Part shown: in pieces, positions 4,950 to 43,400 of the stretch | Position numbering within the stretch: position 1 is the stretch's first letter | Layout: the number at the start of each line of letters is the position of its first letter | DNA from: a virus | Taxonomy: Duplodnaviria > Caudoviricetes | DNA: 45,441 nt | Strand: one strand, 5' to 3' | Virus record (IMG/VR): IMGVR_UViG_3300037419_000703 | Span: 1-45,441 of that record | The notes under the pieces: model-generated | Seen by the model: the letters and a program-made list of their open reading frames with translations, nothing else | Databases searched by the model: none | What the model was told of the DNA's origin: nothing | Program-made: the position numbers and the translations under genes

Positions 4950-4983
4950 AGGAATGTAGCGAATTACTGCAAGGAGTGCGGAA

Positions 4984-5253
4984 ATGGGACTAAAGATCAA
5001 ATTTCAAAAGCCACCCAATCCCCAACCTGAAGTGGAACAGCGGGAAGATTCCATTTTTGATGCCCTAGGACAATTTTTACAGGGTAAAATGGGAACCCTC
5101 ATGTTAGTGCACCGTGGCAACGGTCAGTCGTACCGAGTCATCAAGTACGACGCCAAGACCCAGCGGGTGCTATTGGTGACGAGCGACAAAAAGAAGCTCA
5201 ATCCAATGCTGACGGAGCGGGAAGCCAAGATTTACAAACCAATGTGGCGCTGA
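4984..5253 (+). CDS. hypothetical protein
   Basis: AAGGAG RBS after promoter. Confidence 0.7.
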   Translation: MGLKIKFQKPPNPQPEVEQREDSIFDALGQFLQGKMGTLMLVHRGNGQSYRVIKYDAKTQRVLLVTSDKKKLNPMLTEREAKIYKPMWR

Positions 5254-5305
5254 GGCTCCCCACACTGCTAGAATTGCCCTGATGTAACCTTTATTGGAGG
5301 AAATC

Positions 5306-5470
5306 ATGGGTAGACGAGCGGTGGAGGTAACACCAGAGATAGAAGCATTCTTGAGGCGACGGTATGAGAAGTACTTGGCCACCAAGTTCCGAACAGGGGG
5401 ACGGGGTGTCATGACCTACCGGCAGTTCAAAGAGAAGATGCTTCGTGAACGTGTAGCACTGTTTGATTAG
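5306..5470 (+). CDS. hypothetical protein (54 aa, not in ORF track)
   Basis: GGAGG RBS; MGRRAVEVTPEIEAFLRRRY... Confidence 0.55.
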   Translation: MGRRAVEVTPEIEAFLRRRYEKYLATKFRTGGRGVMTYRQFKEKMLRERVALFD

Positions 5471-5510
5471 ACGAGAACTACTCAAGGAGTGAGTTTTTTC
5501 CTAACCCAAG

Positions 5511-5885
5511 ATGAAAACCAACATGAACGATACCCTCAAAGAAACCTCCATGGTCCAAGAACTGCTGGACCGACTGACGGAGAACCTGAACGGTTCCCGC
5601 ATTGAAGTCGTCACCGACGTGGTGACCGGCAAGCCCATCGTGGCCCTGGCCTTGGACAATACCTTGGACGCCCACACAACGGCCATGATGATCCGCTGCC
5701 TGACAGCGTTTGGCCGTCTGCCTGAAGGCGTGGAATGCAAGCCGTGCCCGACCACACCGGCACTGATTAACATCGACCATAACACGGCTGCTATCAATGT
5801 TAGGACCGAAGCCAACAAGCACCTCTCCAAGCGTTTTGGCGGGGGCGGAGTCTTCGGTGGTTGCAAGCAAGAAGACATGGGCTAA
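5511..5885 (+). CDS. hypothetical protein
   Basis: ORF with phage-like codon usage; start uncertain. Confidence 0.65.
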   Translation: MKTNMNDTLKETSMVQELLDRLTENLNGSRIEVVTDVVTGKPIVALALDNTLDAHTTAMMIRCLTAFGRLPEGVECKPCPTTPALINIDHNTAAINVRTEANKHLSKRFGGGGVFGGCKQEDMG

Positions 5886-5895
5886 ACCCATCAAA

Positions 5896-5929
5896 AACCC
5901 CTGAAATATGAGGATTTCAGGGGTTCTTC
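5896..5929. terminator. hairpin, possible terminator
   Basis: AACCCCTGAAAT/ATTTCAGGGGTT 12-bp stem. Confidence 0.6.
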
Positions 5930-5958
5930 ATTAACGCAAATCAAGGAGTGATACCACC

Positions 5959-6171
5959 ATGCGAGCACGAACTCTTGCCAACATATTGTTGACGTACCCC
6001 GACCGCGACATTCACATCATCGACCCCCACACCAATGAGGAATTACAACTCAAGGGTGTGACCCATGATCGGGATGGAGTCTATCTCTATAGCTATGCGG
6101 GCAGCGCTACGGCGAGGGTCATCAAGGCCATCAACCGCAGGCTGAAGTTACTGGTCCGGAAGTACTTCTAA
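5959..6171 (+). CDS. hypothetical protein
   Basis: AAGGAG RBS. Confidence 0.65.
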   Translation: MRARTLANILLTYPDRDIHIIDPHTNEELQLKGVTHDRDGVYLYSYAGSATARVIKAINRRLKLLVRKYF

Positions 6172-6200
6172 CGTTGCAATCAATTGCGCAGGAGTCCACC

Positions 6201-6434
6201 ATGATCCACAAAGAAACAAGAGAAATAGTGCTTTGGTTTCTGCTGGTGTTCGCATGCATGTTACTGCTGGTGGAGAAAGCCACAGAACCAAACATAGACC
6301 AAGGCTTCATCCGCCTGGATGGGGTGACCAACTACTACGATGAAATCCGCCACACCAAGTGCGAAATCAAGGACAACGACTTCCACTGCACACCCATCAA
6401 ACAGGAAGAGAAACACGACGGCAAGACCGTATAA
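6201..6434 (+). CDS. small membrane-anchored hypothetical protein
   Basis: AGGAG RBS; N-terminal hydrophobic helix. Confidence 0.6.
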   Translation: MIHKETREIVLWFLLVFACMLLLVEKATEPNIDQGFIRLDGVTNYYDEIRHTKCEIKDNDFHCTPIKQEEKHDGKTV

Positions 6435-6443
6435 GGAGAAAAC

Positions 6444-7460: not shown

Positions 7461-7488
7461 GTGGATATAGAACTTCAAGGAGTGAAGA

Positions 7489-7866
7489 ATGGCGGCCGAA
7501 TTCTACGTGAACATGCAAAAGAGAGGCGACGGTAAGGTGTATGCCGATCTGCATAAGACTGATGGCCTTACCTACCCCACGGAACAAGAAGCCAAGAGTG
7601 CGCTGGAGGACACTCTTGTTCCGGGTGGAAAGCAAGTGACCAAACTCATCGCTTTAACTGAGGATGAGTACAAAGAACTTACCCATCTAAATCACTTTGA
7701 AGCCTCCTCCATCATTGCGATGGCTAGGGCGTGGGTACAAGCGGCCTTGAAGTGGGAGCGGGCTAAAACTGGAGTCTACGGTCCAAACTCAGAAAAACAC
7801 TTTACCGAGGCTTTGGACGCCGAATCCAAGTTCAAAAAACTTGTGAACAGTTTTATCAAGGAGTGA
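7489..7866 (+). CDS. hypothetical protein
   Basis: Hairpin RBS after promoter. Confidence 0.7.
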   Translation: MAAEFYVNMQKRGDGKVYADLHKTDGLTYPTEQEAKSALEDTLVPGGKQVTKLIALTEDEYKELTHLNHFEASSIIAMARAWVQAALKWERAKTGVYGPNSEKHFTEALDAESKFKKLVNSFIKE

Positions 7867-8062: not shown

Positions 8063-8234
8063 ACAAGCAGTAACCCTCAAGATACTGGCCCAAGCGTGGG
8101 CGGTTGCTGCACATGACCTCGCACTGTCAGACCTTGCCAGCAACTTCCTGCGCCACCAACAAAAGCTGGAAGACACCAAGAAAGCCTTTTGCACGTATGT
8201 TGACTCACTGGTGGAGGAAGGGAATGCTGTTTGA
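8052..8234 (+). CDS. hypothetical protein
   Basis: GGAGG RBS; resembles the C-terminal part of 7489-7866 (LA.AW..AA...). Confidence 0.6.
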   Translation: MTAEQAVTLKILAQAWAVAAHDLALSDLASNFLRHQQKLEDTKKAFCTYVDSLVEEGNAV

Positions 8235-8730
8235 ACCTGACGACATCCAAGTCAGCACCTACATCACCAAACCCCAAGGGTGGCTGTCAAGACAGGACAA
8301 TGGGGTGCGTATAGTTCACTTACCAACGGGCATTGAAGCCACTTGCAACAGCGAAAGAAGTCAATTCAGGAATAGGACGCTGGCCATGAGCAAGCTGATC
8401 GAAGCCTTAGAAAAACGTGAAAAGGAGAAAAATATGGCGAAGCCACACAAACACGCGGAATTCATCAAGGCATGGGCGGATGGCGTTGCAATTCAAGTCA
8501 GGACTGGCCCACTTTCATGGGATTACATAGGGGACAGTCCTTCGTGGTCCGAAAGCTGTGAATACAGAATTAGTCCTGAGAAGACTTACCCCGAAACCAC
8601 CCTCACGGACCAAGAACTCACGTTACTATGGAACCAGTCAGGTGGAGTCACACAAAGCCTGCGGCGGGTGGTCAACGCCGGAATCAAACGTTACATTCAA
8701 GACCAGGAGAAAAACAATGGCGCGGCATAA
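8224..8730 (+). CDS. class I release-factor (RF-1) domain lacking GGQ, fused in frame to the first KHA-repeat gene (internal start 8434)
   Basis: VRIVHLPTGI...C.SERSQFRNR..AM..L; second RBS and ATG at 8434 in the same frame. Confidence 0.7.
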   Translation: MLFEPDDIQVSTYITKPQGWLSRQDNGVRIVHLPTGIEATCNSERSQFRNRTLAMSKLIEALEKREKEKNMAKPHKHAEFIKAWADGVAIQVRTGPLSWDYIGDSPSWSESCEYRISPEKTYPETTLTDQELTLLWNQSGGVTQSLRRVVNAGIKRYIQDQEKNNGAA

Positions 8731-9019
8731 ACACGCAGAGTTGATCATCGCGTGGGCGGAAGGTGAACAAATTGAATACGAACAACGCCCCGGTGTGTGG
8801 ACCCCTGTTGCGAAGTACCCTCTTTGGGAGGAGGACACCGCTTATAGAGTAAGGCCCAAACCCGTCACCAGCATGACTGATCAAGAATTGAGAAACATAT
8901 ACTATCATTCGGGTGGCAGTGACCATTTTGAGGTGTCCTTACGTTCGGTGGCGGACACGGCAATCCAACACTATGTAAAAGAACAGGAGAAAAACAATGC
9001 CGAAACACAAGCACGCTGA
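8717..9019 (+). CDS. hypothetical protein, second of three tandem paralogs
   Basis: MARHKHAELIIAWAEG; RBS CAGGAG. Confidence 0.75.
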   Translation: MARHKHAELIIAWAEGEQIEYEQRPGVWTPVAKYPLWEEDTAYRVRPKPVTSMTDQELRNIYYHSGGSDHFEVSLRSVADTAIQHYVKEQEKNNAETQAR

Positions 9020-9293
9020 TCTGATCATCGCCTGGGCCAATGGAGCTAAAATCCAAGTCTTCAGCCTGGGAGGATGGTCTGATGCCCTCACCCCTGCGTG
9101 GGACAGTGGTATGAAGTACCGCATCAAGCCAGAGAAGGAATACCCCAAAAGCACACTCACAGACGAGGAACTTGATCGTATGTGGGTGGCCGGTCTGACC
9201 AAGATGTCAGCACTGCGTCAGATTGCAGACACAGCAATCGAACGCTATCTGCAAGACCAAGAATTATCCGATGCTGCAAAAGCAGCAAACTAA
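8997..9293 (+). CDS. hypothetical protein, third of three tandem paralogs
   Basis: MPKHKHADLIIAWANG; RBS CAGGAG. Confidence 0.75.
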   Translation: MPKHKHADLIIAWANGAKIQVFSLGGWSDALTPAWDSGMKYRIKPEKEYPKSTLTDEELDRMWVAGLTKMSALRQIADTAIERYLQDQELSDAAKAAN

Positions 9294-10397: not shown

Positions 10398-10765
10398 GCA
10401 ACATGAATACCGTCGTCAAAGGCATATTGGTTATGCCACTGCAATCAATTGCGGGAACCAAGGAAGAAGACTTGACCGACCTGTCGTTGGGCATGTGTGA
10501 CAAGATGCAACTCCTGATCGCGGAAGACGAGGCCAACAGCCTGTTCGACACCATGATGAGCATCAAAGACGATCAGGACACGGTGGTGCAACATTTGACC
10601 AAGCCACTGGTGAAGTTCGTGAACTCCAACGGCGAGTACCAAGCCATCGAATTCGTGTCGGGTACTCACAACGAGTTCCACCACACGATGACCGTCCGAC
10701 GCAACGACCCGGACTTTGAAGTGCTATGGTCCATCAAGTTCATGACGGTGGAAGCACTGCATTGA
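10394..10765 (+). CDS. hypothetical protein
   Basis: AAGGAG RBS, GTG start. Confidence 0.65.
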   Translation: MSNMNTVVKGILVMPLQSIAGTKEEDLTDLSLGMCDKMQLLIAEDEANSLFDTMMSIKDDQDTVVQHLTKPLVKFVNSNGEYQAIEFVSGTHNEFHHTMTVRRNDPDFEVLWSIKFMTVEALH

Positions 10766-10790
10766 CCGCGCAATTGATTGCAAGATGAGT

Positions 10791-10819
10791 TTGACAAACC
10801 ACTGGGGCTAGTTTATACT
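10791..10819 (+). promoter_or_regulatory. sigma70-type promoter
   Basis: TTGACA-17-TATACT. Confidence 0.85.
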
Positions 10820-10847
10820 AGCTCTTGTGTTATTCCAAGGAGTGGTC

Positions 10848-11654
10848 ATGATCAACAAGCCGAAAAAGTTCAAGTTTCTGGAGGGTATTGATTCCGATTC
10901 CAAGATCAAGTTCTTGGACGAGCCTCCAGTACCAAAGTGGATTTACGACCTGAGTGAAGAGAAGAAAAAGGCACTAAGTCCCGCACCCACATTATCCGAC
11001 GATAATGTGTTCATGTATTTGTATGGCTCAAAGACGGGCCACATGTCCAGTGGGAGTGCACCCAGCCTCCAACAACTCCCCGAGAAGGGCTATCCAGCCT
11101 ACTTCAGCCCCCAATCGTGGGAAAAGCTCAAGAAGATGATGGCGGAGCAAGAAGAAAAGAACAAAGACCATTGGAAGGCAATTATTTACCCTCAGGACTA
11201 CGACTTGTACAACGACCAGCTTTCCAAAGATCATCATGTGAGTATCTGGGTGAACGGCAAGGAGTGCTTTCTCACTCTTGTGCTGCAACCTCACGAGTTT
11301 GAGGGCAATACCTACAACCTTGGCCCCTTGATCTTCGACATCATCAAGGAAGTAGATGGCAAGCTGTTGACGGTTTTGAAAAAACAAATTCAGCAACTCG
11401 GTGTGAGCAAGGATGACGACAAATTCATGCGGCACGCACTGAACGCCTATATGCAGCACCTCATTAACGACAGCATTCACAAGATGGGGCTGGTGTTGGC
11501 CCGCCTGATCAATCTCCAGTCAATGGTGAAAGACAATGTTGTGACCCGGACGTACCAATTCCTTGACCTGAACACCCCCAAGCTGTGGGACGTGGAAATC
11601 CATATTCGTGGAAACGAAGAGAAGAGAATCACCTTTACATTCAACATTCATTAA
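10848..11654 (+). CDS. hypothetical protein
   Basis: Long ORF with RBS after promoter. Confidence 0.75.
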   Translation: MINKPKKFKFLEGIDSDSKIKFLDEPPVPKWIYDLSEEKKKALSPAPTLSDDNVFMYLYGSKTGHMSSGSAPSLQQLPEKGYPAYFSPQSWEKLKKMMAEQEEKNKDHWKAIIYPQDYDLYNDQLSKDHHVSIWVNGKECFLTLVLQPHEFEGNTYNLGPLIFDIIKEVDGKLLTVLKKQIQQLGVSKDDDKFMRHALNAYMQHLINDSIHKMGLVLARLINLQSMVKDNVVTRTYQFLDLNTPKLWDVEIHIRGNEEKRITFTFNIH

Positions 11655-11663
11655 GGAGAAGAA

Positions 11664-11849
11664 ATGAAGTTACCTCGTGGATTCGCGGCAATGAGCCGCT
11701 TGCTGAACAGTGAACTTGCCTCCAAGGGTGGAAAGACAGCCCATGCATTGGGGCGGGCACACACATTCACCCCGGAAGAAGCACGTGCAGCCGCCAAGAA
11801 GTCGGTGGAAGCCCGCCGCGCCAACAAACTGAAGAACAAAGGGGCATGA
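11664..11849 (+). CDS. KGG-motif stress-protein-like protein
   Basis: RGFAAM....SELASKGGK..H..G.AH.FT.EEARAA. Confidence 0.75.
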   Translation: MKLPRGFAAMSRLLNSELASKGGKTAHALGRAHTFTPEEARAAAKKSVEARRANKLKNKGA

Positions 11850-11850
11850 C

Positions 11851-12045
11851 ATGGCACTGCCTGAAAGGTTTGTGGCTTCGTATTTGCCATTCTCCAAGGG
11901 AGCCAAAGTATTCGGCCAACCCATCGAAAGCCTTACCCATGACGAGTTGCTGGCCGTGATAGGAATGCAGCATAAGCAACTAGAGACTGAACGAGAACAC
12001 CACATTTCTATGTCCAAAATGTTGACCTTGATAGGAGGAAAATAA
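11851..12045 (+). CDS. hypothetical protein
   Basis: Tiles with neighbours. Confidence 0.6.
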   Translation: MALPERFVASYLPFSKGAKVFGQPIESLTHDELLAVIGMQHKQLETEREHHISMSKMLTLIGGK

Positions 12046-12410
12046 TGGGTGCCTGCCATACTTTCTACGACGAACTGCGCTTCGATGTGCGTGACCCGCA
12101 CCTAACCCACGTGTACGTCTATATCCGGTGCCAAGGGGATTGCCCACACTTCATCCAAGGGTGGCACCACAAGGCATTCCCGAGCACGATGAGCACCAAG
12201 GAAATCTTCGACAACCTGTGGAGCGGGAACGACGACTCGGACCCCGTGATGTGGCCCCTGAAAGCGCCACCAAGCTATGAACGCAACAACACACTGGATG
12301 AGGTGGTGAAAGTGGTGGCGGACGACGCTGCCGCCCACGCTATCGAGACAGGCACGGCTGTGTCTCCCCTATGGGACATTGCTCGGAAGCTGGAAGGCAT
12401 GAAGACTTAA
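12045..12410 (+). CDS. hypothetical protein
   Basis: AGGAGG RBS; TAATG coupling. Confidence 0.65.
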   Translation: MGACHTFYDELRFDVRDPHLTHVYVYIRCQGDCPHFIQGWHHKAFPSTMSTKEIFDNLWSGNDDSDPVMWPLKAPPSYERNNTLDEVVKVVADDAAAHAIETGTAVSPLWDIARKLEGMKT

Positions 12411-12430
12411 CCAACCCCAAGGAGTGGAAC

Positions 12431-12616
12431 ATGATAAGCCAAGCCGCAGAAGAACTATTGAACGACATCCACAACTTGGGGATGGAACGTGAAATCGAAT
12501 GGAGCGCAATCCGTGGCGTGATGATCGATTTCACTGACGATCAACTGACGTGGTTGCGGAAGCAGTTGGAACTGATGATCCAACTGGCTGAACTGGAACT
12601 CAAGCTGCGCAATTGA
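12431..12616 (+). CDS. hypothetical protein
   Basis: AAGGAG RBS; stop codon lies inside the palindromic site. Confidence 0.6.
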   Translation: MISQAAEELLNDIHNLGMEREIEWSAIRGVMIDFTDDQLTWLRKQLELMIQLAELELKLRN

Positions 12617-12643
12617 TTGCAAACCAACCTCAAGGAGTGAATC

Positions 12644-12877
12644 ATGTTTGAAGCCTATAAGAACTATGTTGCAGAAAACAAACGCAAGCTGGCCGACAAA
12701 GACCCGGAGTATGTGAAGGCGTATTACATCGGCACGGCCATGTTTGCACTGGCATTCGCGCTGGCCATCTTGTGTGGGTTCATCCTGTTGCTCAAGGAAT
12801 TCAGCCTCCACGGCATTGCTGCTGGCATTGGAGACTTCATCAACACGGTGGATTCTCACGCATTCCCACGCAATTGA
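12644..12877 (+). CDS. small membrane protein
   Basis: RBS; hydrophobic helix; stop inside the palindromic site. Confidence 0.65.
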   Translation: MFEAYKNYVAENKRKLADKDPEYVKAYYIGTAMFALAFALAILCGFILLLKEFSLHGIAAGIGDFINTVDSHAFPRN

Positions 12878-12890
12878 TTGCACAAACTCT

Positions 12891-12918
12891 TTGACAAACC
12901 CACTTAGTGTGCTATACT
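12891..12918 (+). promoter_or_regulatory. sigma70-type promoter
   Basis: TTGACA-16-TATACT with TG extended -10. Confidence 0.8.
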
Positions 12919-12967
12919 TCAGATGTGGGTTTGATTTTGAGTGTTTTCTTTCCAAGGAGTGGACGCC

Positions 12968-13141
12968 ATGAAAAACTATGATCGTGAAGAAGCCCGGAAA
13001 GCTTATTTGGCACGTAAAGCATATTTTGCTGGGCTGCAACCGGCACTGGATAAGAACTTCAAGGAAGCAAAATCCGAAGAAGAGTTGTTGGCGGCTGATG
13101 GAAAGGCCATCAAACAGTATATTTCCAAGAACCACGCTTAA
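12968..13141 (+). CDS. hypothetical protein
   Basis: Hairpin RBS; MKNYDREE. Confidence 0.65.
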   Translation: MKNYDREEARKAYLARKAYFAGLQPALDKNFKEAKSEEELLAADGKAIKQYISKNHA

Positions 13142-13166
13142 TTTTCAATCTCAAGGAGTGGATGCC

Positions 13167-13433
13167 ATGAAACTGGCCGATCTGATGAAGAGTTTCGACG
13201 AGCGCGCCGACAAGATGCCCAAGGGCCGGTTCTGGCTGACCGAGAAACAATTCAACTTTGCCAAAGACTTGGCCAATCAAGAACGAATCAGCATCGAGCA
13301 GTTCCACAATTTTCGTACTTGGGCCGTGGGCAAGAATGCCGAGTACTGGAGCAGTAAGCACTTTGCCCACGGTGACGGTCGCAACACCTTGTTGCCGGGC
13401 CGGTGGGCTGAAGAAATGAAGAAAGCTAACTAA
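13167..13433 (+). CDS. hypothetical protein
   Basis: RBS nearly identical to that of the previous gene; MKLADL. Confidence 0.65.
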   Translation: MKLADLMKSFDERADKMPKGRFWLTEKQFNFAKDLANQERISIEQFHNFRTWAVGKNAEYWSSKHFAHGDGRNTLLPGRWAEEMKKAN

Positions 13434-13451
13434 CCTCAAGGAGTGAGGATC

Positions 13452-14652: not shown

Positions 14653-14678
14653 GGACTTTTATTGCAAAGGAGTGCACC

Positions 14679-15136: not shown

Positions 15137-15342
15137 ATTGCATGTACTGTGGATTTACGTCGATGGGGTCGGAAATGTATGTGGTGAAGGCCACCAGCAA
15201 GCCACGAGGAACACCAAACCGATGGGACCGCATTGGATACTGCTGCGAACCCTGTCATGAGGTGGCGGGCAAGCCTATCGAATACGAAAATGTTCCAGGA
15301 CCAAGGAGTGGGAATGAGACTACACAATCTGAAGGTGGGTGA
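15133..15342 (+). CDS. small Zn-finger protein
   Basis: CxxC ... CxxC. Confidence 0.55.
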   Translation: MNCMYCGFTSMGSEMYVVKATSKPRGTPNRWDRIGYCCEPCHEVAGKPIEYENVPGPRSGNETTQSEGG

Positions 15343-17444: not shown

Positions 17445-17479
17445 GTTCTTGTGGTGATCGAGTTCTCAAGGAGTGAGTC

Positions 17480-18582: not shown

Positions 18583-18604
18583 TGTTTTACTTCAAGGAGT
18601 GAAA

Positions 18605-18792: not shown

Positions 18793-18975
18793 ATGGCTAC
18801 CAAAATCAAACCTTGCACAGTGGGGAAGCGCCATACGTGGGAGTGGGTGAAGGACACCACAACCCAAAGCCTTCAGTCTGGACTCAGTGGCGCTCGCATG
18901 AGCATTGCCCGGCGCGGCATCTATAAGTGCGCTTGTGGTGAGCGCAAGTATGGTGACCCAAGGAGTGGACTGTGA
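18793..18975 (+). CDS. small Cys-containing protein
   Basis: C....H.W ... CxCG. Confidence 0.6.
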   Translation: MATKIKPCTVGKRHTWEWVKDTTTQSLQSGLSGARMSIARRGIYKCACGERKYGDPRSGL

Positions 18976-19184: not shown

Positions 19185-19362
19185 AGTGAAGTACCCAAGG
19201 AGTGGAAACCCCAATCTGCGCAATCAATTGCGCAAGAAGTTGCACCCTAATTAAGTTGTTGAACAAGGGTGTCGTTTTTACGCTATGTGATCCCAAAGAA
19301 ACAAAAAACAGGCGTAGAATCGTAATTCCCCAAAACAATTTCTCTTCTGAAAGACCATTCAC

Positions 19363-21298: not shown

Positions 21299-21350
21299 AG
21301 CTACGTGGGGTTTGTTTTTGTGATTGAAGTTTTTTCTCAAGGAGTGAGAT

Positions 21351-22281: not shown

Positions 22282-22355
22282 GGTTCTGTAGTGATGATTT
22301 TGAAGCGATTTTGGTGGTTTTTGTTGATTTCCAATCTATCTCAAGGAGTGAGGCC

Positions 22356-22870: not shown

Positions 22871-22884
22871 CCAAGGAGTGAATC

Positions 22885-23954: not shown

Positions 23955-24201
23955 CAGAACCTTCCTTCCAGCAATATTTTAGGTACAATGAACTCCTTCG
24001 CTGGCCGTGCAATTGATTGCGCAGCCGTCAAATTCAAGGAGTGTACCCATGCTTTTGTCGATTTCTGCATTGCCTCGTCCGCCATGTCGGGGCTGGTCGT
24101 AGTTCTTCCCTGAGTGGACCATTTATAACGTGAACTAACACGGACCCGTGTTTTTGGGGTAGGATCGCCGCAAGTCATTCGACAATGCAATTGGATCAAT
24201 C

Positions 24202-26987: not shown

Positions 26988-27179
26988 CAAAGGGAGGCTG
27001 CTATGCGTAAATAACGTTAGCCCCCACAACTGGGGATGAGTTAAGTGAGATAAGACGAAATAGGCAAGGGCTATGCTTACACCGGGGACTAGCCCCCCGC
27101 ATTGACCGGAATGTGAGTAGGGTGACGGGGATTCCCAGCAATTAAATTCCCCATTTCAAACCAAACCAAGGAGTGTAAA

Positions 27180-27296: not shown

Positions 27297-27371
27297 GCGC
27301 CCAAGGCTGAAAGCGGTGAGCGGGGCCGCTTTAAATAACCCCGCACCAACATCGAATTCAAGGAGTGAACG

Positions 27372-29062: not shown

Positions 29063-29107
29063 AATCATGTGGTTCCGATAAATCAAAAGTCTCAAGGAGT
29101 GAGCAAA

Positions 29108-29308: not shown

Positions 29309-29337
29309 ATCAACGCCAATAAGTGAAAGGAGTTCAC

Positions 29338-35012: not shown

Positions 35013-35038
35013 GAATTCTTTAACTCAAGGAGTGAGCG

Positions 35039-35278
35039 ATGACCCGTACAACCCTCAAAATCCGTAAGCCCCGCATCAATCTTGCCAACCTTCGCACCGA
35101 CCTGACGGAAGTGGTCCAAGAAGCCAACGACCTGAATTTCGGTTGCCATTTCAACCGTAATGCCTTCATTGCCGACAATCTGATGGCGCGTGGCCATGAT
35201 GCCCCGAAGGACATGCTTGTGGCTGACCTTGCCCGTATGGTGGGCCTGCGGGTGGAAAACGGCGTGATTTTCTCATGA
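35039..35278 (+). CDS. hypothetical protein
   Basis: Hairpin RBS. Confidence 0.65.
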   Translation: MTRTTLKIRKPRINLANLRTDLTEVVQEANDLNFGCHFNRNAFIADNLMARGHDAPKDMLVADLARMVGLRVENGVIFS

Positions 35279-35679
35279 GCAAGGTCATCCACCTTCAGGA
35301 TGAGGATGTCTATTACCTGCTGAACCTGTTGCCAGCAATGAAGGACATCCCCGACCCTCAGAAATACATGAGCATCATCAGTCAAATCCACATCCAGACC
35401 ATGGATGTTGGAAACCCATCCAATCTGTTTGCTGAGATACAGATTGGTGGTCCGGAGGAACTACCGATCCCGCCCAAGGAATATTTCCAAGTGCCTCTGC
35501 ACGCCAACTCTGACAAGATAAAGGCCATCAAGTTTATTCGTGAAATCACTGGGATGGGCTTGAAGGAAGCCAAGGATGCCGTGGATTTTTCCAACAACAT
35601 ACCCTTCCCTGCTGGATGGGATCAAAAATTAATCCTGACGAAAGCTAAGTCGGCTGGGGTTACCGTAGAGTTTTATTGA
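35275..35679 (+). CDS. protein with ribosomal L7/L12 C-terminal-like domain
   Basis: KIKAIKFIREITGMGLKEAKDAVD ... AG.TVE. Confidence 0.75.
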   Translation: MSKVIHLQDEDVYYLLNLLPAMKDIPDPQKYMSIISQIHIQTMDVGNPSNLFAEIQIGGPEELPIPPKEYFQVPLHANSDKIKAIKFIREITGMGLKEAKDAVDFSNNIPFPAGWDQKLILTKAKSAGVTVEFY

Positions 35680-35692
35680 CGAAGGAGTCGCT

Positions 35693-36093: not shown

Positions 36094-39000
36094 ATGTTTG
36101 CATCTATTCTTGCGCGCAAGTTCAACCCCAACCACGATGAAAAGGGGCGCTTCGCCTCCCAAGGAACTGGAATCTCCGGTGGTTCGCGCAATCACTTGCA
36201 CGAAATGTTCAACCGGATCGGCCAGCCGGATGGTGGATTCACCTATCAACCGACCACCGAAGAGGAACCGTCCGAGGGATATGCGCTGTCTCCCTACCCG
36301 GAGAAGTCGTTTGCCAAGCCTGCCAAAGACCTTCAGTTCAAGGACGTGGTGAACTATTACCTGAAGAATCGGGACGTGTTCAAGCAACCGGACCACTTCA
36401 TTGGTGCATGGCACGACCCGGCATCCGGGATGGTGTTTCTGGACGTGTCGGTGGTGAAGCATTCCGAAGAGGAGGCCACCAAGCTGGCGCTGGAGAAAGA
36501 CCAGATCGCTTATTTCGACTTGAAGAACTTCAAGTCTGTCACCGTCAACCCGGATGCTAAGTCCGGTGTGCTGAAAGGGATTCAAGATGGACAAGCCGCA
36601 ATTGCATTTGGTCAAACCGGATTCGGAAGTGTCTTCGCTCGTAAAGCTGTTCAAGCAGTTGACGGGCCGGGAGCCGACCGAAGCGGAACTGAAGGAGGCG
36701 CAGGAAATGCTGAGCAAAGAGCAGCCGCGCAATTGATTGCGCAAGCTTCCAAGGTTCTCAAGTTCAACCCCAACCATGACACGAGCAATGGACAATTCAC
36801 CTCAGGCAACTCCGGACCTTCAGAATCTTCCGTTCGATCCGGCAGTGGAGAAGGAAAAGGAATTTCCCTCCGCCCCCAACAACCAGACGCCGAATCCGCC
36901 GACCTCATCCACTACGGACGTGAAGGCGGACTCACGCAATTGAGTGCATCCCACTACGGCACCGGTATCAAGGGTGCTGAAGCTGCACGTCTTGCCAAGA
37001 GCAACGACAGCAACATCAAGAATCGGGTCTATTTCTACCTGAATGATGGGTCCGGCAAGCTGCCCCGCAAGGAGCAGGGTTTGGGCCAGCACGTCTACGC
37101 TGTCAAGCTGACCAACTTGTACGACTTCAAGAAAGACCCGGCCAAGATCATTCCGCGCATGCGCGACATCCCCGACCAGACCGAGCGCTCCAACTTCATG
37201 GAGTCTGAAATCGTCAAGTCGGGCTACGATGGCTACGCCCTGAAGGCTTACAACATGGCGGTGGTGCTGGGCAAGGACGTACCCGTGGAATACAAGGGCA
37301 CGGACACAGCCAAGCTGGAAGGCTTCGTCAACGTATTCAAGTTCAATCCGAATCATGACGACAAGGGCCGGTTCACGGCGGGCTCCGCTGCCTCCCTTGG
37401 TGGTGTGTTGGCACGCATGGCGGCGGGGGAAGACCACCCGAACATCATGCACCTGAAGGTGGACGGCAAGACCCCGTTTGGTGGAAACGAGAATTTGGGC
37501 GTTTCTCGCATTGATATGCCTCAAATCCCTCGTGCCGACCGTGAACAGTTCATCGCCAACTTGCACGCCAACGTCACGCCGGAATACGTTGACCCCACGA
37601 CTCTCAAGCCGACCCAAAACGAACTGGATGGGCGCAAAGTGGGGAGTCTTTACGGCAAGATTCTGGCGGGCGAGAAGCACAACGACCCCATCCTTGTGAG
37701 CCAAGAAGGGTTTGTGGTGGACGGCCACCACCACTGGGCGGCATCCGTCGCTGCCAAGGTCACTGGTGCTCGTCCCAACGAGAAAATCCACATCTACCGC
37801 ATCCACATGCAGCACAACAAGCTGATGGCTGCTGCCCACGCCTACGCCAAGGAAAAGGGCTATCAATCCAAGGACATCACCAAGTCGGAGTTGTTCTCCA
37901 CCGTCTTCAAGCACAACCCTAACCATGGCCCTGATGGAAAATTTACGTCTGGTCCGAGCAGTGCTGCTTTTAAAGAGTGGTTCGGGGACAGCAAGGTAGT
38001 AGGTGAAGATGGCAACCCGAAGGTCATGTACCATGCCACCACGGCAGATTTTGACACTTTCAAGGATAACCCGCGTGGAGTGCATTTTGTTAGCCCTGAC
38101 CCTGAATGGACCTCAAAGTTCCTGAAGGATGAGAACGGGGCAATCATTGAGGGGGCGTCCGTAATGCCTGTCTATGTGAAGGCATCGAACCCGTTTGACT
38201 TTGAGAACAAGAAGCATGTGAACCTGATCGCGGCGAAGGCTATGTTGAGCAGCGCCCAAACCAAGAAGATTAAAGCCGGTGATTGGACTGCGATTGAAGA
38301 CCGCACCGTGTTGCACTACATCAAGCAGTCTGGATTCGACGGTCTGTACGTGAAGGAAGATGGGGTTAAGAATTTGGCTGTCTTCGACCCTACCCAACTG
38401 AAGTCGACTACTGGCAACAACGGCCAGTACGACCGCAAGAACCCGAACATCATAAAGGCTGAATTCAGCTTCGCCCAAGTCCTGAAGCACAACCCCTACC
38501 ACGACCAGTTGGGACGGTTTGCCACCCATGGCGGCGCGCACTTCATTTCGACGTGGGGTAAGCACTACGCTGAAGCGGCCAACGCGAAGGCCAAGCCTGA
38601 AGAACACAGTGATCCCTTCGCTGGAGCCGCCGACCGGACTACTACCCATGTTGATCCCGCTCAACGTGCCAAGGACCAGTACAAGGCCGACCAGAATGCG
38701 TTGACCACCGCCAACGCAGCGGTGTTGGGCACGCACGACAGCCAGAGCAAGTCCCAGCAGTACACCGAGGCCCCGACCCCCAAGGAACAGGGACTTGTGA
38801 ATGCCTTCCATAACGTGGTGGCGTCCCACATGGAAGTCTACCCCCACGACATGAAGGACATGGCGGCACTGGAGTGGGCACAAAGCCTGGACGCACCTTA
38901 CGCTTCCAAGTACAAGCTGGGCCTGCCCCTGATGGATTGGGAGAAGGAAAAAGTCGCCAAGGACTTGGAAGACTTGAAAATCTCCAAGGATGCGGTGGGC

Positions 39001-40512
39001 GGTGGTTGGACTACCCCGACCGACCTTGGAAAGTATGGAGAACCCAAGAAGGTATTCGACCCCAACAAAGTGTCCGATGCCTTGGACAACCATATTTACG
39101 ACATGAACCAAGTGGCAAGCAAGGTTTCAAACGCCAACTACTGGAAATCAAGTGCTGAAATCTTGGATGGCGCCACGTCTCAGGAAGAGGAAGCCGCCAA
39201 GAAGAAGTATCAGGAAATGGTGCGCATCGCCCAAGAGGCGGCACCGGGATTTGAAGGCCAAGCGGAAGCCCAAGTGTCTAAACTGTTCAGCCATGCCGGG
39301 ATGAACATCTCCACCAAGCACAAACTGGGCATGTACTTGACGCCTACGGAGCGCGACAACATCGCCTCCACTTTGAAACAGATCAATCAAGCCAAGGCGT
39401 ATAACGCTGGCCTGGAATACCAGAAGGCCGTGGAACAGATGCACATGGCGCAGTACACCCATAGCCCGGAAGCCCTCGCTATGGCCAAGGTGAACGCATC
39501 CCAAGCCAAGGAAAAGGCGATGGGCCTGGGGCTGGATGAATATGCCTTGACCGGCTACGAGGAAATGGCCAAGGACAATGCCAAGTATCAATTCAAGGAG
39601 AAGCAGAAGGAAGCGGAAGCCGACTTCATGAAGACCTTGGGAGGGGCCCATCCGCGCGCCCCGGCAGACGGCAAGCTTGATCCTGCGGTGCAGCAGAACA
39701 AGGACTTCTACATCGGCAAGAACCTGATGACTCCGGAGAAGGCCGACGAACTGATCGCCAACCATTTCGCCACCGGCAAGGGGTTGGCCAAGTTCCACCA
39801 GGAACTCAAGGCCATGATCCCTGAAGCCAAAAAGGTGACGGAGGACTTTGACAACCGTTCGTTCTCCTTCTTGGACCCCTATAGCGGTGAAGCCACTCAG
39901 TTCTTCAAGGATGAAACCCAAAAATACAGCAGGATGTCGTCTGGTGCCAAAACAGCCGTGAAGGATTACACCTCCAGTGGTTACAAGGTGAACAAGGCCA
40001 TCGGCATGGCGGTGACAGCCAAGATGCTGGGCCAGAAACCTCACGCCCTCAATTCCAGTGAGAAGCTGTTCATGAAGCAAATGGATGAAGCCACCGGCCA
40101 CCCTATCAACCGTGACCTGATGTTGCGCCGTAACTTGCCGACCAAGTTCTTGGCTTCGCAAATGGGCATGACGACGGAAAAGCTGCACTCCATGTCCCAA
40201 GAGGAATTGGAAAAGACGTTCGTGGGCAAAATCTACCGTGACACGACGTATGGCTCCACCACGATCAACAAGAATTTCAATGGTACGTTCTCCACGGCGG
40301 CGTCCCAAGGTGAAGGATCGTTCTTCATCCGTGCCCCCAAGGGAACCAAGGGGTTGGGGGTGGAGCACGTCACCAACAACTCCGGGGAACACGAAGTCAT
40401 CCTCCAGCGCGGCACCACTTACGTTATCCGGAGTGTCACAAAATCGGAGTACAGCAGCCACATCGACTTCAATGTGGACATCATTGGCCAGCACCCTGAC
40501 AAATTGGATTGA
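36094..40512 (+). CDS. polyvalent five-module protein: unknown domain, ART-like domain, ParB/Srx-like domain, ART-PolyVal-like domain, helical region plus R-S-E ADP-ribosyltransferase
   Basis: LKPTQ..VVDGHHHW (ParB-N); FKEWFGDSKVV..G.P.VMYH...GFDG...AVFDPTQLKS (ART-PolyVal); LRRN..YGSTT..EHEVIL.RG (VIP2/Alt-type ART); five KxNPxH tags. Confidence 0.85.
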   Translation: MFASILARKFNPNHDEKGRFASQGTGISGGSRNHLHEMFNRIGQPDGGFTYQPTTEEEPSEGYALSPYPEKSFAKPAKDLQFKDVVNYYLKNRDVFKQPDHFIGAWHDPASGMVFLDVSVVKHSEEEATKLALEKDQIAYFDLKNFKSVTVNPDAKSGVLKGIQDGQAAIAFGQTGFGSVFARKAVQAVDGPGADRSGTEGGAGNAEQRAAAQLIAQASKVLKFNPNHDTSNGQFTSGNSGPSESSVRSGSGEGKGISLRPQQPDAESADLIHYGREGGLTQLSASHYGTGIKGAEAARLAKSNDSNIKNRVYFYLNDGSGKLPRKEQGLGQHVYAVKLTNLYDFKKDPAKIIPRMRDIPDQTERSNFMESEIVKSGYDGYALKAYNMAVVLGKDVPVEYKGTDTAKLEGFVNVFKFNPNHDDKGRFTAGSAASLGGVLARMAAGEDHPNIMHLKVDGKTPFGGNENLGVSRIDMPQIPRADREQFIANLHANVTPEYVDPTTLKPTQNELDGRKVGSLYGKILAGEKHNDPILVSQEGFVVDGHHHWAASVAAKVTGARPNEKIHIYRIHMQHNKLMAAAHAYAKEKGYQSKDITKSELFSTVFKHNPNHGPDGKFTSGPSSAAFKEWFGDSKVVGEDGNPKVMYHATTADFDTFKDNPRGVHFVSPDPEWTSKFLKDENGAIIEGASVMPVYVKASNPFDFENKKHVNLIAAKAMLSSAQTKKIKAGDWTAIEDRTVLHYIKQSGFDGLYVKEDGVKNLAVFDPTQLKSTTGNNGQYDRKNPNIIKAEFSFAQVLKHNPYHDQLGRFATHGGAHFISTWGKHYAEAANAKAKPEEHSDPFAGAADRTTTHVDPAQRAKDQYKADQNALTTANAAVLGTHDSQSKSQQYTEAPTPKEQGLVNAFHNVVASHMEVYPHDMKDMAALEWAQSLDAPYASKYKLGLPLMDWEKEKVAKDLEDLKISKDAVGGGWTTPTDLGKYGEPKKVFDPNKVSDALDNHIYDMNQVASKVSNANYWKSSAEILDGATSQEEEAAKKKYQEMVRIAQEAAPGFEGQAEAQVSKLFSHAGMNISTKHKLGMYLTPTERDNIASTLKQINQAKAYNAGLEYQKAVEQMHMAQYTHSPEALAMAKVNASQAKEKAMGLGLDEYALTGYEEMAKDNAKYQFKEKQKEAEADFMKTLGGAHPRAPADGKLDPAVQQNKDFYIGKNLMTPEKADELIANHFATGKGLAKFHQELKAMIPEAKKVTEDFDNRSFSFLDPYSGEATQFFKDETQKYSRMSSGAKTAVKDYTSSGYKVNKAIGMAVTAKMLGQKPHALNSSEKLFMKQMDEATGHPINRDLMLRRNLPTKFLASQMGMTTEKLHSMSQEELEKTFVGKIYRDTTYGSTTINKNFNGTFSTAASQGEGSFFIRAPKGTKGLGVEHVTNNSGEHEVILQRGTTYVIRSVTKSEYSSHIDFNVDIIGQHPDKLD
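36587..36736 (+). CDS. 49-aa ORF nested in +1 frame of the 1472-aa gene
   Basis: AAAGGGA RBS; MDKPQLHLVKPDSEVSSLVKLFKQLTGREPTEAELKEAQEMLSKEQPRN. Confidence 0.55.
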   Translation: MDKPQLHLVKPDSEVSSLVKLFKQLTGREPTEAELKEAQEMLSKEQPRN

Positions 40513-40514
40513 TC

Positions 40515-40752: not shown

Positions 40753-40777
40753 TGGTTCATAACTCAAGGAGTGAATT

Positions 40778-41701
40778 ATGACCAAACACCGCGCAATCAA
40801 TTGCAAGCCAACCGTCACATCCCTACGTAGCGCCCTGATGTGGCAAGCCGTGGGTGATGCGATGGGCTACGAATTTGAATTCCAGAAGAACCCCAAATCC
40901 ATGGACTACGTACGCAAGTACTTGGGGGACTCCAAGATCAAAATCAGTGACGATACCCAAATGACCTACTTCGGTCTGCGGGCCATCGCAACCTACTTGG
41001 CGACTGGAGCCGAAAGCCCAAGCCTTGCCCAAAAGCTGATCAAGATGGAATACTTGAACTGGTATCACACCCAATTGGTGGGGCGTAAGGTTCCAGGCGT
41101 TCCAAAGGAAATGTATAGCTATATGGCGCCGGGAGGAGCCACGATGCGATCCATGGGGGAAATCGACCTCTACGGGGTTCGCAAACCCAATGACGCCCGT
41201 GGCTGTGGCAGCGTGATGCGCCTGCTGCCGTTCGTGTGCGGCATCCTTCCAGATGATCAAGCGGAAAAGCTGGCCCGATACTCAGGCAAGGTGACTCACG
41301 ATTCCAAGGAAAGCGACGAAGCGGTACGTAAGCTGTTCAAGTACGCCCGTATGCTGGAAATCCACGGGTCGGCTGCGCTGGACGTTCTTAGAACCAACGA
41401 ACCCCTCATTGCCAAGGCGAAAAAGATAACGGAACTAGGGTCCGGATTCTACGCAATTGAGTGCGTGAACATGGCCCTGTGGGCACTGTTGCACCACTCT
41501 GACGATCCCATGATCATGTTCACGGTGGCAACGGTCCATCCGGGGGATTCAGACAGTGTGGCGGCGGTCACCGGCTGTTTATATGGGCTGATGACGAAAA
41601 GCGAACCTACCCAAGAACGGTGGGATCGGGTTAAGGAAGGCAAAGTCCTGTTGGCCCAAGTCAACGAGGTAGATTCGGCGCTGAACATTGCCTATAATTA
41701 A
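40778..41701 (+). CDS. ADP-ribosylglycohydrolase (DraG/ARH family)
   Basis: AVGDAMG, SDDTQMT, GCGSVMR, TH, GDSDSVAAVTG. Confidence 0.9.
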   Translation: MTKHRAINCKPTVTSLRSALMWQAVGDAMGYEFEFQKNPKSMDYVRKYLGDSKIKISDDTQMTYFGLRAIATYLATGAESPSLAQKLIKMEYLNWYHTQLVGRKVPGVPKEMYSYMAPGGATMRSMGEIDLYGVRKPNDARGCGSVMRLLPFVCGILPDDQAEKLARYSGKVTHDSKESDEAVRKLFKYARMLEIHGSAALDVLRTNEPLIAKAKKITELGSGFYAIECVNMALWALLHHSDDPMIMFTVATVHPGDSDSVAAVTGCLYGLMTKSEPTQERWDRVKEGKVLLAQVNEVDSALNIAYN

Positions 41702-41723
41702 GGCTCCAAAATAAGGAGCAGCC

Positions 41724-42680
41724 ATGTACGCCAAGGTCTTCAAATTCAACCCGAATCACGACGCCAAAAACGGGCAGTTCACGAGTGGTTCGGGTGGGTC
41801 CAGCGGACCTACTGGCACGGCCCATGGGCGCAAGACTTTGCGCGGCATCAAGGGAAACATCGGCAATTTCCCACGGGACAACCGCCCGGTGAGTGAGGTG
41901 GTGGCGGCAATCAAGTCGCACTTACCCCAAGACCAGCTTGATGCTGCTGACCGTTTCGATAAACAGGTTGCGGACGCCCTGGCCAGCGGGGAAGAGACCG
42001 TCAAGAAGTACGCCACACAGAAGGGAACCGATTCGGCTGGAAACCCGATCTATGAATGGAGTCCGGAGCGCCAAGCCCTGCACCAAAAGATCGTGGACGA
42101 GTTCTTTGCGGACGCCGACAAATACGTCCCGCCCAAGGGCGTGGCCCCGGAATTCGTGGCACTAGGTGGCCGTGGTGGGTCGGGCAAGAGTCAGTTGACT
42201 AACCCGGAAACCACTCCGATCAAGGACATTGGCAAGTTCAAGGTGCTGGACCCTGACGAAATCAAGGGCAAGCTGCCGGGCTACAACGGGGCGAACGCAG
42301 CCCTGTTCCACGAAGAGTCCAGCATGCTGACGGACAAAATCCTGTACCAAGCGTTGATGCGGGGCATGAACATGGTGCAAGACGTGACCATGAAAAGCAA
42401 GAAAGGGGTACAAGGTGCGCTGGACACGGCCCACCGCTATGGCTACAAGCTACAAGGCCATTACATGCACCTCCCAGCGGAGATTGCTGGACAGCGTGCG
42501 ATGGCACGTGCAACCGGAAGGAAGCCCCGTTACGTCCCCTTGGAAATCATTGCGGGGAACAAAGATAATGAGAAGAACTTCCAAGAATTGGTGAATGATG
42601 GATATTTCTCGTCGTGGTCCGTGTGGGATAACAACGTCCCGCAAGGCCAGAAGGCGAAGCTTGTAGCAAAACGACCATAA
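41724..42680 (+). CDS. zeta-toxin-like P-loop kinase with N-terminal KFNPNHD tag
   Basis: GGRGGSGKS, DPDEIK, HEES, D.T, RA..R...RYVP, WDNN. Confidence 0.85.
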   Translation: MYAKVFKFNPNHDAKNGQFTSGSGGSSGPTGTAHGRKTLRGIKGNIGNFPRDNRPVSEVVAAIKSHLPQDQLDAADRFDKQVADALASGEETVKKYATQKGTDSAGNPIYEWSPERQALHQKIVDEFFADADKYVPPKGVAPEFVALGGRGGSGKSQLTNPETTPIKDIGKFKVLDPDEIKGKLPGYNGANAALFHEESSMLTDKILYQALMRGMNMVQDVTMKSKKGVQGALDTAHRYGYKLQGHYMHLPAEIAGQRAMARATGRKPRYVPLEIIAGNKDNEKNFQELVNDGYFSSWSVWDNNVPQGQKAKLVAKRP

Positions 42681-42689
42681 GGAGTGAAC

Positions 42690-42920
42690 ATGAGTACCAA
42701 CAACGAAACCTACAGCCAAGCCCTTGAGCGCATCTACAGCCGTGAGGGTGGTGAACGGGTGGGCAACAAGGAGTTCCTGTTGCAGTGCATCGAAGATGGT
42801 GACTTCAACACCATCGGCTATCTGCCGAGCATGAGCGTTGACGGCGTGAGCGAAGAGGACTTCAAAGCTGCCCAGGAACGCGGCAAGGCCAAGAGCCTTG
42901 TACAACGTGCTAAGACCTAA
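42690..42920 (+). CDS. small protein after zeta-like kinase, candidate antitoxin
   Basis: TAAGGAG RBS overlapping the upstream stop codon. Confidence 0.65.
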   Translation: MSTNNETYSQALERIYSREGGERVGNKEFLLQCIEDGDFNTIGYLPSMSVDGVSEEDFKAAQERGKAKSLVQRAKT

Positions 42921-42932
42921 AAACAACAGCAT

Positions 42933-42961
42933 TTGACAAACCTCCTAGATGGGATTAAACT
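42933..42961 (+). promoter_or_regulatory. sigma70-type promoter
   Basis: TTGACA-17-TAAACT. Confidence 0.75.
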
Positions 42962-42996
42962 TCAAGGGTCAAGAAACACTATCTAGGAGGCCCAAA

Positions 42997-43131
42997 ATGC
43001 GTGAATTAGTTCTCTCCCTCGTCCTGATCTTCATCATCCTTGCCCTCGGAGTGTACGTCGGTATCTCCGCCATTGACCTGTATCAACACGTGGAAGCCGC
43101 CGCCAAGCTGTACACAGACCTTCCGAAGTGA
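42997..43131 (+). CDS. small membrane protein (44 aa)
   Basis: AGGAGG RBS; hydrophobic helix. Confidence 0.6.
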   Translation: MRELVLSLVLIFIILALGVYVGISAIDLYQHVEAAAKLYTDLPK

Positions 43132-43175
43132 TAAAAAGTAGTTTCCGTAGTTCAACTTGAATTGAGGAGACCGCC

Positions 43176-43343
43176 ATGAGCAAACCGACGAAGGAACAGG
43201 TACACGACTACATGCAGCAGCGTATCAACGGTAAAACCCCGCCCCCCAGCCCGGAGCAAATCCGGCGCGAACTCGGATGGGGCATGGTTGAGGGGAATCA
43301 AAAGGAAAAAGCCACGGGCTGGGACACTCCAAGAACGGTTTGA
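43176..43343 (+). CDS. 55-aa protein (not in ORF track)
   Basis: GAGGAG RBS; PTKEQV..Y...R....PPPSPEQIRRELGW. Confidence 0.65.
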   Translation: MSKPTKEQVHDYMQQRINGKTPPPSPEQIRRELGWGMVEGNQKEKATGWDTPRTV

Positions 43344-43368
43344 CAAATCCCAAGAAGTCCCGTACACT
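43340..43368 (+). promoter_or_regulatory. sigma70-type promoter
   Basis: TTGACA-17-TACACT. Confidence 0.8.
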
Positions 43369-43400
43369 ATAGTTGTGTTTTGATTCTCAAGGAGTGAGAA

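Follow-up and report, generated by a model that had tools for sequence, protein, structure and literature searches.

The RsmZ stem-loops bound by RsmE display A(N)GGAX loops, with N optional, closed by a C-G and then a U-A pair, and Thr5 of RsmE contacts the G of the closing pair (PMC4005645). In CsrA, Arg44 is described as essential for GGA recognition, and csrA genes are also known from phages (PMC7366521), with 30 phages in Sobrero and Valverde 2020 and 88 records of phages with canonical csrA in our count. Knockdown of one such gene, PTXU04_00028, results in smaller plaques, and a host-directed role was proposed for it (PMC11879866). The targets of phage csrA genes are not known, and action on the host is assumed. 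Here we describe a hairpin element at the Shine-Dalgarno (SD) sequences of a DLP5-like siphovirus, IMG/VR record IMGVR_UViG_3300037419_000703, analyzed as one stretch of 45,441 bp (the window), and a CsrA-like gene of this phage group whose product is the probable reader of the element.

The phage system resembles CsrA/RsmA/RsmE (RsmE-hcnA, PDB 2jpp; RsmZ; PF02599) in its five- or six-base A(N)GGAX loop, borne by a short stem over the SD sequence (PMC4005645, PMC7366521), and in a small all-beta protein with the beta4-beta5 register A-P-x-x-V/I-x-V/I-x-R that includes the Arg44 equivalent. It differs in having Gly at the Thr5 position, a single site per leader and no sponge-like clusters, since no two strict sites lie less than 150 nt apart in 10 genomes (looser sponges were not searched), and in that both the protein gene and the sites are phage-borne. 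CsrA has five strands and a helix in approximately 61-75 residues, whereas the phage protein has 85-113 residues and nine predicted strands, with no helix in the model. In RsmN/RsmF of Pseudomonas aeruginosa a CsrA core carries an internal insertion, which is helical in RsmN, whereas the extra 30-35 residues of the phage protein are predicted strands. PTXU04_00028 and the other phage csrA genes are CsrA-family genes in phages, as here, but they are near-canonical and have proposed host targets, and the portions of the reports available to us name no phage targets; the protein described here is too divergent for a direct PF02599 genome search and is accompanied by matching phage sites.

The Start Associated Sequences of Cluster K mycobacteriophages are also a repeated AGGAG motif with symmetric outer bases, placed in one orientation before non-structural starts (PMC3203893). 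They differ in being a fixed 13-mer in an unrelated host and phage group, and the accessible portion of that report describes no covariation and identifies no reader protein. RegB and RegA of T4 likewise exert phage-wide post-transcriptional control at the SD regions of early mRNAs. RegA acts at initiation regions that lack structure. The GGAG sites cleaved by RegB are single-stranded (PMC1702504). Neither is known to need a hairpin, whereas the sites described here pair. Within an incomplete coverage of the literature, we came across no account of a phage CsrA that has a hairpin regulon of its own, and the main text of the DLP3 paper mentions neither CsrA, nor Shine-Dalgarno sequences, nor promoters.

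Covarying hairpins at Shine-Dalgarno sequences

The motif CAAGGAGTG occurs 29 times on the plus strand of the window and 0 times on the minus strand. We judged 24 of these copies to be true ribosome-binding sites, with SD spacing before an open reading frame (ORF) of at least 31 codons; the copies at 2023 and 11258, which lie inside coding regions, and those at 5483, 19196 and 24035 were set aside. The ribosome-binding sites of about one quarter of the phage genes, mostly those that come first after a promoter, sit between short flanks that pair. A sequence-only reading of the window had put the number of CA-AGGAG-TG ribosome-binding sites at more than 20, in agreement with these counts, and all ten flank pairs that it cited are present where it placed them. 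Its long stems are correct as examples, although they are the best-paired ones and the general stem has 3-4 bp; the example at 5480 pairs as described but does not have normal SD spacing (Table 1).

The element is an AGGAG loop on a stem of 3-4 bp, closed by A-U and then C-G in all 24 ribosome-binding sites of the window. The first pair outside this CA/UG is Watson-Crick (WC) in 24 of the 29 copies, compared with 12.3 expected when the 3' flanks were shuffled among sites (0/100,000 shuffles). The second is WC in 14/29, with 9.5 expected (p=0.046 by flank shuffles), and the third is at chance level (7/29, 7.4 expected, p=0.64). Among the 24 ribosome-binding sites, pair 1 is kept in 22, as UA in 14, CG in 6, GC in 1 and UG in 1. 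The covariation score over these 24 sites was 0.291, compared with 0.143 after shuffling (0/500) and 0.05-0.16 when slid (at most 0.158), which bears out the flank covariation claimed from the sequence. Even the 'fixed' C-G pair covaries: of 90 A-AGGAG-U start sites without C-G in ten genomes, 35 carry another WC pair, with 23.4 expected (p=0.004). The isolated hairpins are weak, ranging from +2.6 to -5.6 kcal/mol, and the pairing probability exceeds 0.5 in 7 of the 29 local folds.

A pattern search for promoter plus motif, with the flanks left free, returned 88 viral stretches, of which 35 were classed as related by G+C content, shared proteins, contig or a shared DNA palindrome (see below), partly by eye and omitting three from a near-identical contig. 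Pairs 1, 2 and 3 are WC in 67, 53 and 30 of the 76 deduplicated sites from the 35 related loci, compared with 24.3, 22.8 and 18.8 expected, and all four WC types occur. The other loci are at chance level, with 7, 7 and 7 of 32 sites and 8.0, 9.4 and 8.3 expected.

Nine relatives, namely DLP5 and eight IMG/VR records of which six have an estimated completeness of 100%, carry CAA(N)GGAGTG in 11-40 copies on one strand, with 0-1 on the opposite strand. Depending on the optional base the loop is AGGAG or ANGGAG, and five- and six-base loops coexist on covarying stems. Compensatory changes of the outer pair are seen between orthologous sites. Among ten orthologues of the PPDK-like gene, the last complete gene of the window, the outer pair is UA in 3, CG in 3, GC in 1 and mismatched in 1, with no site called in 2. 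The DLP5_142 family (L129:2941-3960), a core protein of 338-369 residues without a name, has the site in 9/9 genomes and is the most conserved target. Overall, the site is present in 1 of 111 members of structural core families and in 46 of 248 non-structural members. A locus of the same phage group was also seen in a cellular assembly (L169, a 374-kb contig of an Acidobacteriaceae metagenome-assembled genome), where it includes a CsrA-like gene together with eight sites of the six-base-loop form and eight palindromes.

The plus strand has recurrent sigma70-like promoters with the form TTGACA-AACC. The first gene after such a promoter has the site in 13/16 cases, compared with 13/83 other genes (p=6e-7), using a hand-curated gene list and a promoter list that adds 18554 by eye and omits 2129; with the unmodified list of 16 sites the count is 12/16. 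Because genome-wide promoter scans alone gave counts not above shuffled ones in the first two segments, the promoter calls rest on a shared extended consensus and on position. The association with first genes after sigma70 promoters had been noticed in the sequence-only reading, as had the lack of sites at terminase genes, the polyprotein and gene 41724, which we confirmed for terL (24809), the polyprotein (36094) and 41724. The promoter-like sites 10791, 12891, 21271, 29035 and 34814 have the extended -35 TTTGACAAACC in common, and in several of them inverted repeats flank the -10 box (AAACC(C)AC ... GTGG(G)TT), possibly as an operator or a transcript-start hairpin.

A divergent CsrA-like protein in the same phages

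Core-gene clustering revealed a small core gene in 9/9 relatives, two genes after the PPDK-like gene. Its product, which we call CsrA-like, is encoded in these nine relatives and in the near-identical contig L056, where it lies at 8882-9151, equivalent to approximately 45803-46072 of the window and so about 360 bp beyond the window's end. The shared trans-acting reader proposed from the sequence is supported by this result, as a candidate stands two genes after the last complete gene of the window, and looking for CsrA-like genes elsewhere, which had been suggested as a check, proved fruitful. L056 is 97-100% identical to the window over 36.9-43.2 kb and over the last 141 nt. Identity is 88-90% across the PPDK-like gene (window 43200-45300), pointing to recent allele exchange at this gene between otherwise near-identical phages. 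In G001, G006 and L164 a strict site also stands at the start of the CsrA-like gene itself, and L056 has a near-match there.

At an E value of 0.001 or better the family numbers 632 representatives, and in the Atlas it adjoins the 'Carbon storage regulator family' cluster (0.90). PF02599 matches 12 of 35 members weakly, the near-window protein being below the cut-off. The family profile finds members in four of five records (Summit, RHph_Y1_11, RcZahn and PG28); the member from Vibrio phage PG28 (family-profile E 1.2e-6) passes the PF02599 cut-off, with 28.9 against 27 bits, and matches solved CsrA/RsmA/RsmE at E 2e-4 to 9e-4. The N-terminal half of the protein aligns with CsrA residues 2-35 and the C-terminal end with residues 27-47, with 0 and 1 of 60 shuffles scoring higher. 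Arg84, in register with Arg44 of Escherichia coli CsrA, is Arg in 148 and Lys in 7 of 157 sequences, while the CsrA Thr5 position is Gly in 152/157. The model of an 89-residue member has a predicted local distance difference test (pLDDT) score of 86.3. Support from fold searches is weak: one search matched it to a viral model labeled carbon storage regulator (template modeling score 0.62, E 8.6e-4); Foldseek on the PDB and a wide VIA search gave no CsrA chain among their rows. Our call is limited to a CsrA-like, divergent protein rather than a canonical CsrA family member.

Two further observations concern protein form. In the DLP5/Summit form (L002:39984-40322, DLP5_139; P0010, P0018, P0027) about 24 residues are inserted after strand 2, and among the genomes only DLP5 has sites that have lost the outer pair. 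The idea that Gly at the Thr5 position explains A-U closure agrees with the DLP5 clade and with RcZahn, which has Ser and C-G, but PG28 combines Gly with C-G, and the idea is speculation.

A single hairpin score was computed over every called GGA-type start site in 14 genomes assigned the CsrA-like gene and in five controls, which are more distant terminase relatives where the gene was not detected. The hairpin excess reached z scores of 2.2 to 10.1 in 13 of the 14, counting the window through L056 and KarBoss with a split gene, and -1.6 to 2.1 in the controls. The form of the site varies: the Vibrio phages PG28 and KarBoss have a fixed GUC-AGGA-GAC SD motif, RcZahn has canonical C-G-closed six-base loops with two covarying pairs, and RHph_Y1_11 has the gene and hairpins of mixed forms, in part with C-G closure. 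RcZahn and RHph_Y1_11, the two alphaproteobacterial phages, were scanned without their last 469 and 1,599 bases. A 13-row protein tree was mostly unresolved and so provides no test of co-evolution between protein and operator.

Proposed repression by a phage-encoded protein and its alternatives

We consider it probable, from sequence comparison, that the sites are operators of a phage-encoded CsrA-like repressor of non-structural, mostly promoter-proximal mRNAs. The protein would read the sites by clamping the hairpin with the SD sequence in the A(N)GGAG loop, the weak stem of 3-4 bp forming mainly once protein is bound, and would keep the 30S subunit off, giving repression as by RsmE at hcnA. 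Since a promoter of the same class and a gene with a site both precede the CsrA-like gene, which in three genomes has a site at its own start, feedback is plausible: the protein would accumulate and then restrain its own synthesis. The expected outcome is a delayed joint shut-down of non-structural transcripts that leaves the capsid, portal and terminase genes free, either as an early-to-late timer or as a brake in a carrier state. DLP5 and DLP3 are temperate (PMC5834331, PMC7326821), which would make the carrier-state role an alternative use of the switch. We infer 'early' and 'switches off' from promoter type, gene class and the known CsrA mechanism.

If true, this would be a concrete alternative to action on the host: a divergent CsrA whose phage targets, 11-40 per genome, can be listed, directly testable in the cultured phages DLP5, DLP3, Summit, RcZahn, RHph_Y1_11 and PG28. 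It would also add a third post-transcriptional timing route in phages beside RegA and RegB, serve as a model for start-associated repeats that lack an explanation in other phages, and yield natural pairs of CsrA and operator whose stem specificity is altered.

Several observations weigh against repression by such a protein. The CsrA-like gene is outside the window and was read from the L056 contig, and a direct PF02599 search found nothing in 9/9 relatives. The family profile had 0 matches among PDB sequences, and in structure comparison RsmF/RsmN (PDB 4k59, 4kji) matched model residues 1-88 with Z 3.4-3.6, a root-mean-square deviation of 2.7-2.9, 50-51 aligned residues and 20-22% identity, below unrelated rows. 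RsmE targets close with C-G and then U-A, and the phage sites have the reverse order. DLP5 has the CsrA-like gene and 22 core sites, with pair 1 WC in 1/22 and a hairpin z of -0.2. In KarBoss the gene (L157:6259-6718, minus strand) is split over two frames, through either a sequencing error or a real frameshift, while the motif is intact at about 16 starts. A few genes within the structural block do carry the site. As for co-occurrence, the loop forms scored were picked after the motifs had been seen, the control IME392 reaches p=0.035, and the association is not independent evidence because, judged by terminase, the genomes with the gene are closely related to one another and the controls stand further away.

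A more elaborate version, which we put forward tentatively and hold to be rather doubtful, is a private, host-insulated translational regulon. Here the CsrA would be one chain with an internal duplication, a single face for RNA binding (beta1 and terminal beta5) and a retuned stem readout, and would act as an early-to-late switch with an operator code particular to each phage lineage (loops closed by A-U in the DLP5 clade, six-base loops closed by C-G in RcZahn and a fixed GUC/GAC stem in the Vibrio phages). An internal repeat between the N- and C-terminal halves of the family was not detected (probability 0.7%), so that the one-chain duplicate model draws only on the weak alignment of both halves to overlapping parts of CsrA.

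One alternative to the repressor is that a phage protein binds the hairpins without simple shut-off, stabilizing or licensing mRNAs or titrating translation with no temporal switch. Many repressed CsrA leaders have a second upstream site. Such second sites were not enriched here (3/30 compared with a background of 0.34), and most named replication enzymes of the window are without a strict site, both of which are in line with binding of this kind. CsrA binding may indeed also activate translation or alter mRNA decay, although the bound GGA is the SD core and binding there normally outcompetes the 30S subunit (PMC7366521). We regard this alternative as unlikely, though the least unlikely of those considered here.

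The sites could also be read by the CsrA/RsmA of the host, coupling phage expression to host state. In favor, the loop has the canonical A(N)GGAX form (PMC4005645), RcZahn has canonical six-base loops closed by C-G, and a csrA match is present in the one cellular assembly that contains such a locus. Closure in the window clade is nevertheless the reverse of that in RsmZ/hcnA, and the operator form varies by phage lineage, each lineage keeping its own CsrA-like gene. Rhizobia have no recognizable CsrA (PMC7143759), and the Rhizobium phage RHph_Y1_11 has both the gene and the hairpins, which argues against a host reader there. A host reader is accordingly improbable in our view.

Sites of this kind might need no trans-acting factor at all, being a preferred strong SD sequence, a copied promoter and ribosome-binding cassette, or a palindrome acting at the DNA level. 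The UGA of the motif, extending the anti-SD pairing past a bulge, would add approximately 2.4 kcal/mol (from -7.3 to -9.7), and the sites cluster at uncoupled starts (36/72, compared with 3/26 overlapped starts). Anti-SD pairing cannot, however, tie a 3' base to a 5' base, with all four WC types present, and the highly expressed structural genes are without the site. The leaders are mutually no more alike than shuffles (0.253 compared with 0.256), and a copied cassette was rejected on this ground. A DNA operator fits poorly with variable arms, two spacer lengths and a strict strand bias. Altogether we hold an explanation without a reader to be very improbable.

Equally hard to sustain is a RegB-like endonuclease or other processing enzyme that inactivates transcripts by cutting GGAG, for although GGAG is invariant here and T4 RegB inactivates early mRNAs by such cleavage, RegB requires an 11-nt single-stranded site with an A-rich 3' part (PMC1702504) where the 3' flank of these sites is selected to pair, and the conserved CsrA-like gene would be left unexplained. 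The RegB and RegA profiles (PF10715, PF01818) were blank in 5/5 relatives, in a search whose positive control gave no match either. Of the 'RNA-binding protein or nuclease' that had been proposed from the sequence, the CsrA branch is favored over the RegB branch.

Features and gene content of the window

The window spans the whole of its virus record and has 54% G+C, and its called genes are all on the plus strand. Its terminase shares 57% identity with the enzymes of Summit, DLP5 and DLP3, which are Stenotrophomonas phages, and approximately 50% with those of Vibrio, Rhizobium and Rhodobacter siphoviruses of 80-100 kb. The content is that of the non-structural part, with many small genes without assigned function, RuvC, dUTPase, ribonucleotide reductase, ThyX and terminase, and further includes a polyvalent protein and the PPDK-like gene. 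In an Rfam scan of the window, tRNA was the sole match, and no RNA holder is listed for 10700-13700. The individual features are given in Table 1.

Table 1. Positions of hairpin sites and associated features in the window
Feature	Position	Strand	Context
SD hairpin site, 3 bp	604..614	+	before gene 619 (PHROG 2002, Holliday junction resolvase)
SD hairpin site, 5 bp incl. U-G	4967..4981	+	first gene after promoter-like site 4921; orthologue site kept in 3/4 relatives
Well-paired copy, 5 bp (core 5483)	5480..5494	+	nearest ATG 5511, 19 nt away; not normal SD spacing
SD hairpin site, 4 bp	5940..5952	+	before gene 5959
SD hairpin site, 5 bp	7473..7487	+	first gene after promoter-like site 7432
SD hairpin site, 3 bp	7856..7866	+	before gene 7871
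SD hairpin site, 3 bp	10835..10845	+	first gene after promoter-like site 10791
SD hairpin site, 3 bp	12417..12427	+	before gene 12431
SD hairpin site, 3 bp	12630..12640	+	before gene 12644
SD hairpin site, 4 bp	12951..12963	+	first gene after promoter-like site 12891
SD hairpin site, 3 bp, U-G outer pair	13151..13161	+	before gene 13167
SD hairpin site, 5 bp	13434..13448	+	before gene 13452
Six-base-loop form (AAGGAG loop), 4-bp stem	14663..14676	+	first gene after promoter-like site 14624
SD hairpin site, 3 bp	15301..15311	+	before gene 15314
SD hairpin site, 4 bp	17465..17477	+	first gene after promoter-like site 17417
SD hairpin site, 4 bp	18591..18603	+	before gene 18605, behind weak promoter-like site 18554
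SD hairpin site, 3 bp	18958..18968	+	before gene 18972
Copy, 3 bp (core 19196)	19195..19205	+	167 nt upstream of ribonucleotide reductase gene
SD hairpin site, 5 bp	21335..21349	+	first gene (DoxX family) after promoter-like site 21271
SD hairpin site, 5 bp incl. U-G	22339..22353	+	first gene after promoter-like site 22254
Core only, flanks unpaired	22872..22880	+	before 31-codon ORF 22885
Core only, flanks unpaired	24035..24043	+	before 16-codon ORF; 167 nt upstream of gene 24202
Core only, flanks unpaired	27167..27175	+	before 38-codon Lys/Ala/Thr-rich ORF 27180
SD hairpin site, 4 bp	27357..27369	+	before gene 27372 (392 residues, no family)
SD hairpin site, 4 bp	29091..29103	+	first gene after promoter-like site 29035
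Variant: AGGAG loop, 5-bp stem, A-U in place of C-G	29323..29337	+	
SD hairpin site, 4 bp	35024..35036	+	first protein gene after promoter-like site 34814 and two tRNA genes
Variant: AGGAG loop, 3-bp stem, G-C in place of C-G	35680..35690	+	
SD hairpin site, 3 bp	40764..40774	+	first gene (ADP-ribosylglycohydrolase) after promoter-like site 40724
Sigma70-like promoter site	43340..43368	+	heads gene run that contains CsrA-like gene in relatives
SD hairpin site, 6 bp, of PPDK-like gene	43384..43400	+	site in 8/10 orthologues, compensatory changes
PPDK-like gene (PF01326, PF00391)	43401..45332	+	first of run leading to CsrA-like gene
Next gene, first 22 codons, cut by contig end	45376..45441	+	CsrA-like gene follows it in near-identical L056
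DNA palindrome copies	6176, 6932, 7411, 10441, 10770, 12609, 12870, 15726, 17263, 19220, 23229, 24009, 27545, 28556, 31735, 36729, 40793, 44906		

The DNA palindrome GCAAT-(TG or CA)-ATTGC has 18 copies in the window, nine per orientation, and is likely a site for a dimeric DNA-binding protein. Three copies begin exactly 21 nt before a -35 box, and near-matches are likewise placed before 3261 and 34814. Elsewhere there are 3-50 copies in G001-G008 and DLP5, and 24 in RcTiptonus. The cores 19196 and 24035 each adjoin a palindrome, and the next large gene (ribonucleotide reductase, and gene 24202 ahead of terL) follows each of them at a distance of exactly 167 nt, which may be coincidence.

Some translation-related phage genes were also noted in the window, with matches to RF-1 (peptide release factor) at 8224-8730 and to the ribosomal protein L7/L12 C-terminal domain at 35275-35679. 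The polyvalent protein (36094-40512) has two ADP-ribosyltransferase domains, and a Zeta-toxin-like kinase is encoded at 41724-42680; both have an N-terminal FNPNHD tag and are without the hairpin site. Between them, the ADP-ribosylglycohydrolase (40778-41701) has its own promoter-like site and hairpin, which suggests that the polyvalent protein and this enzyme are a writer/eraser pair under different control.

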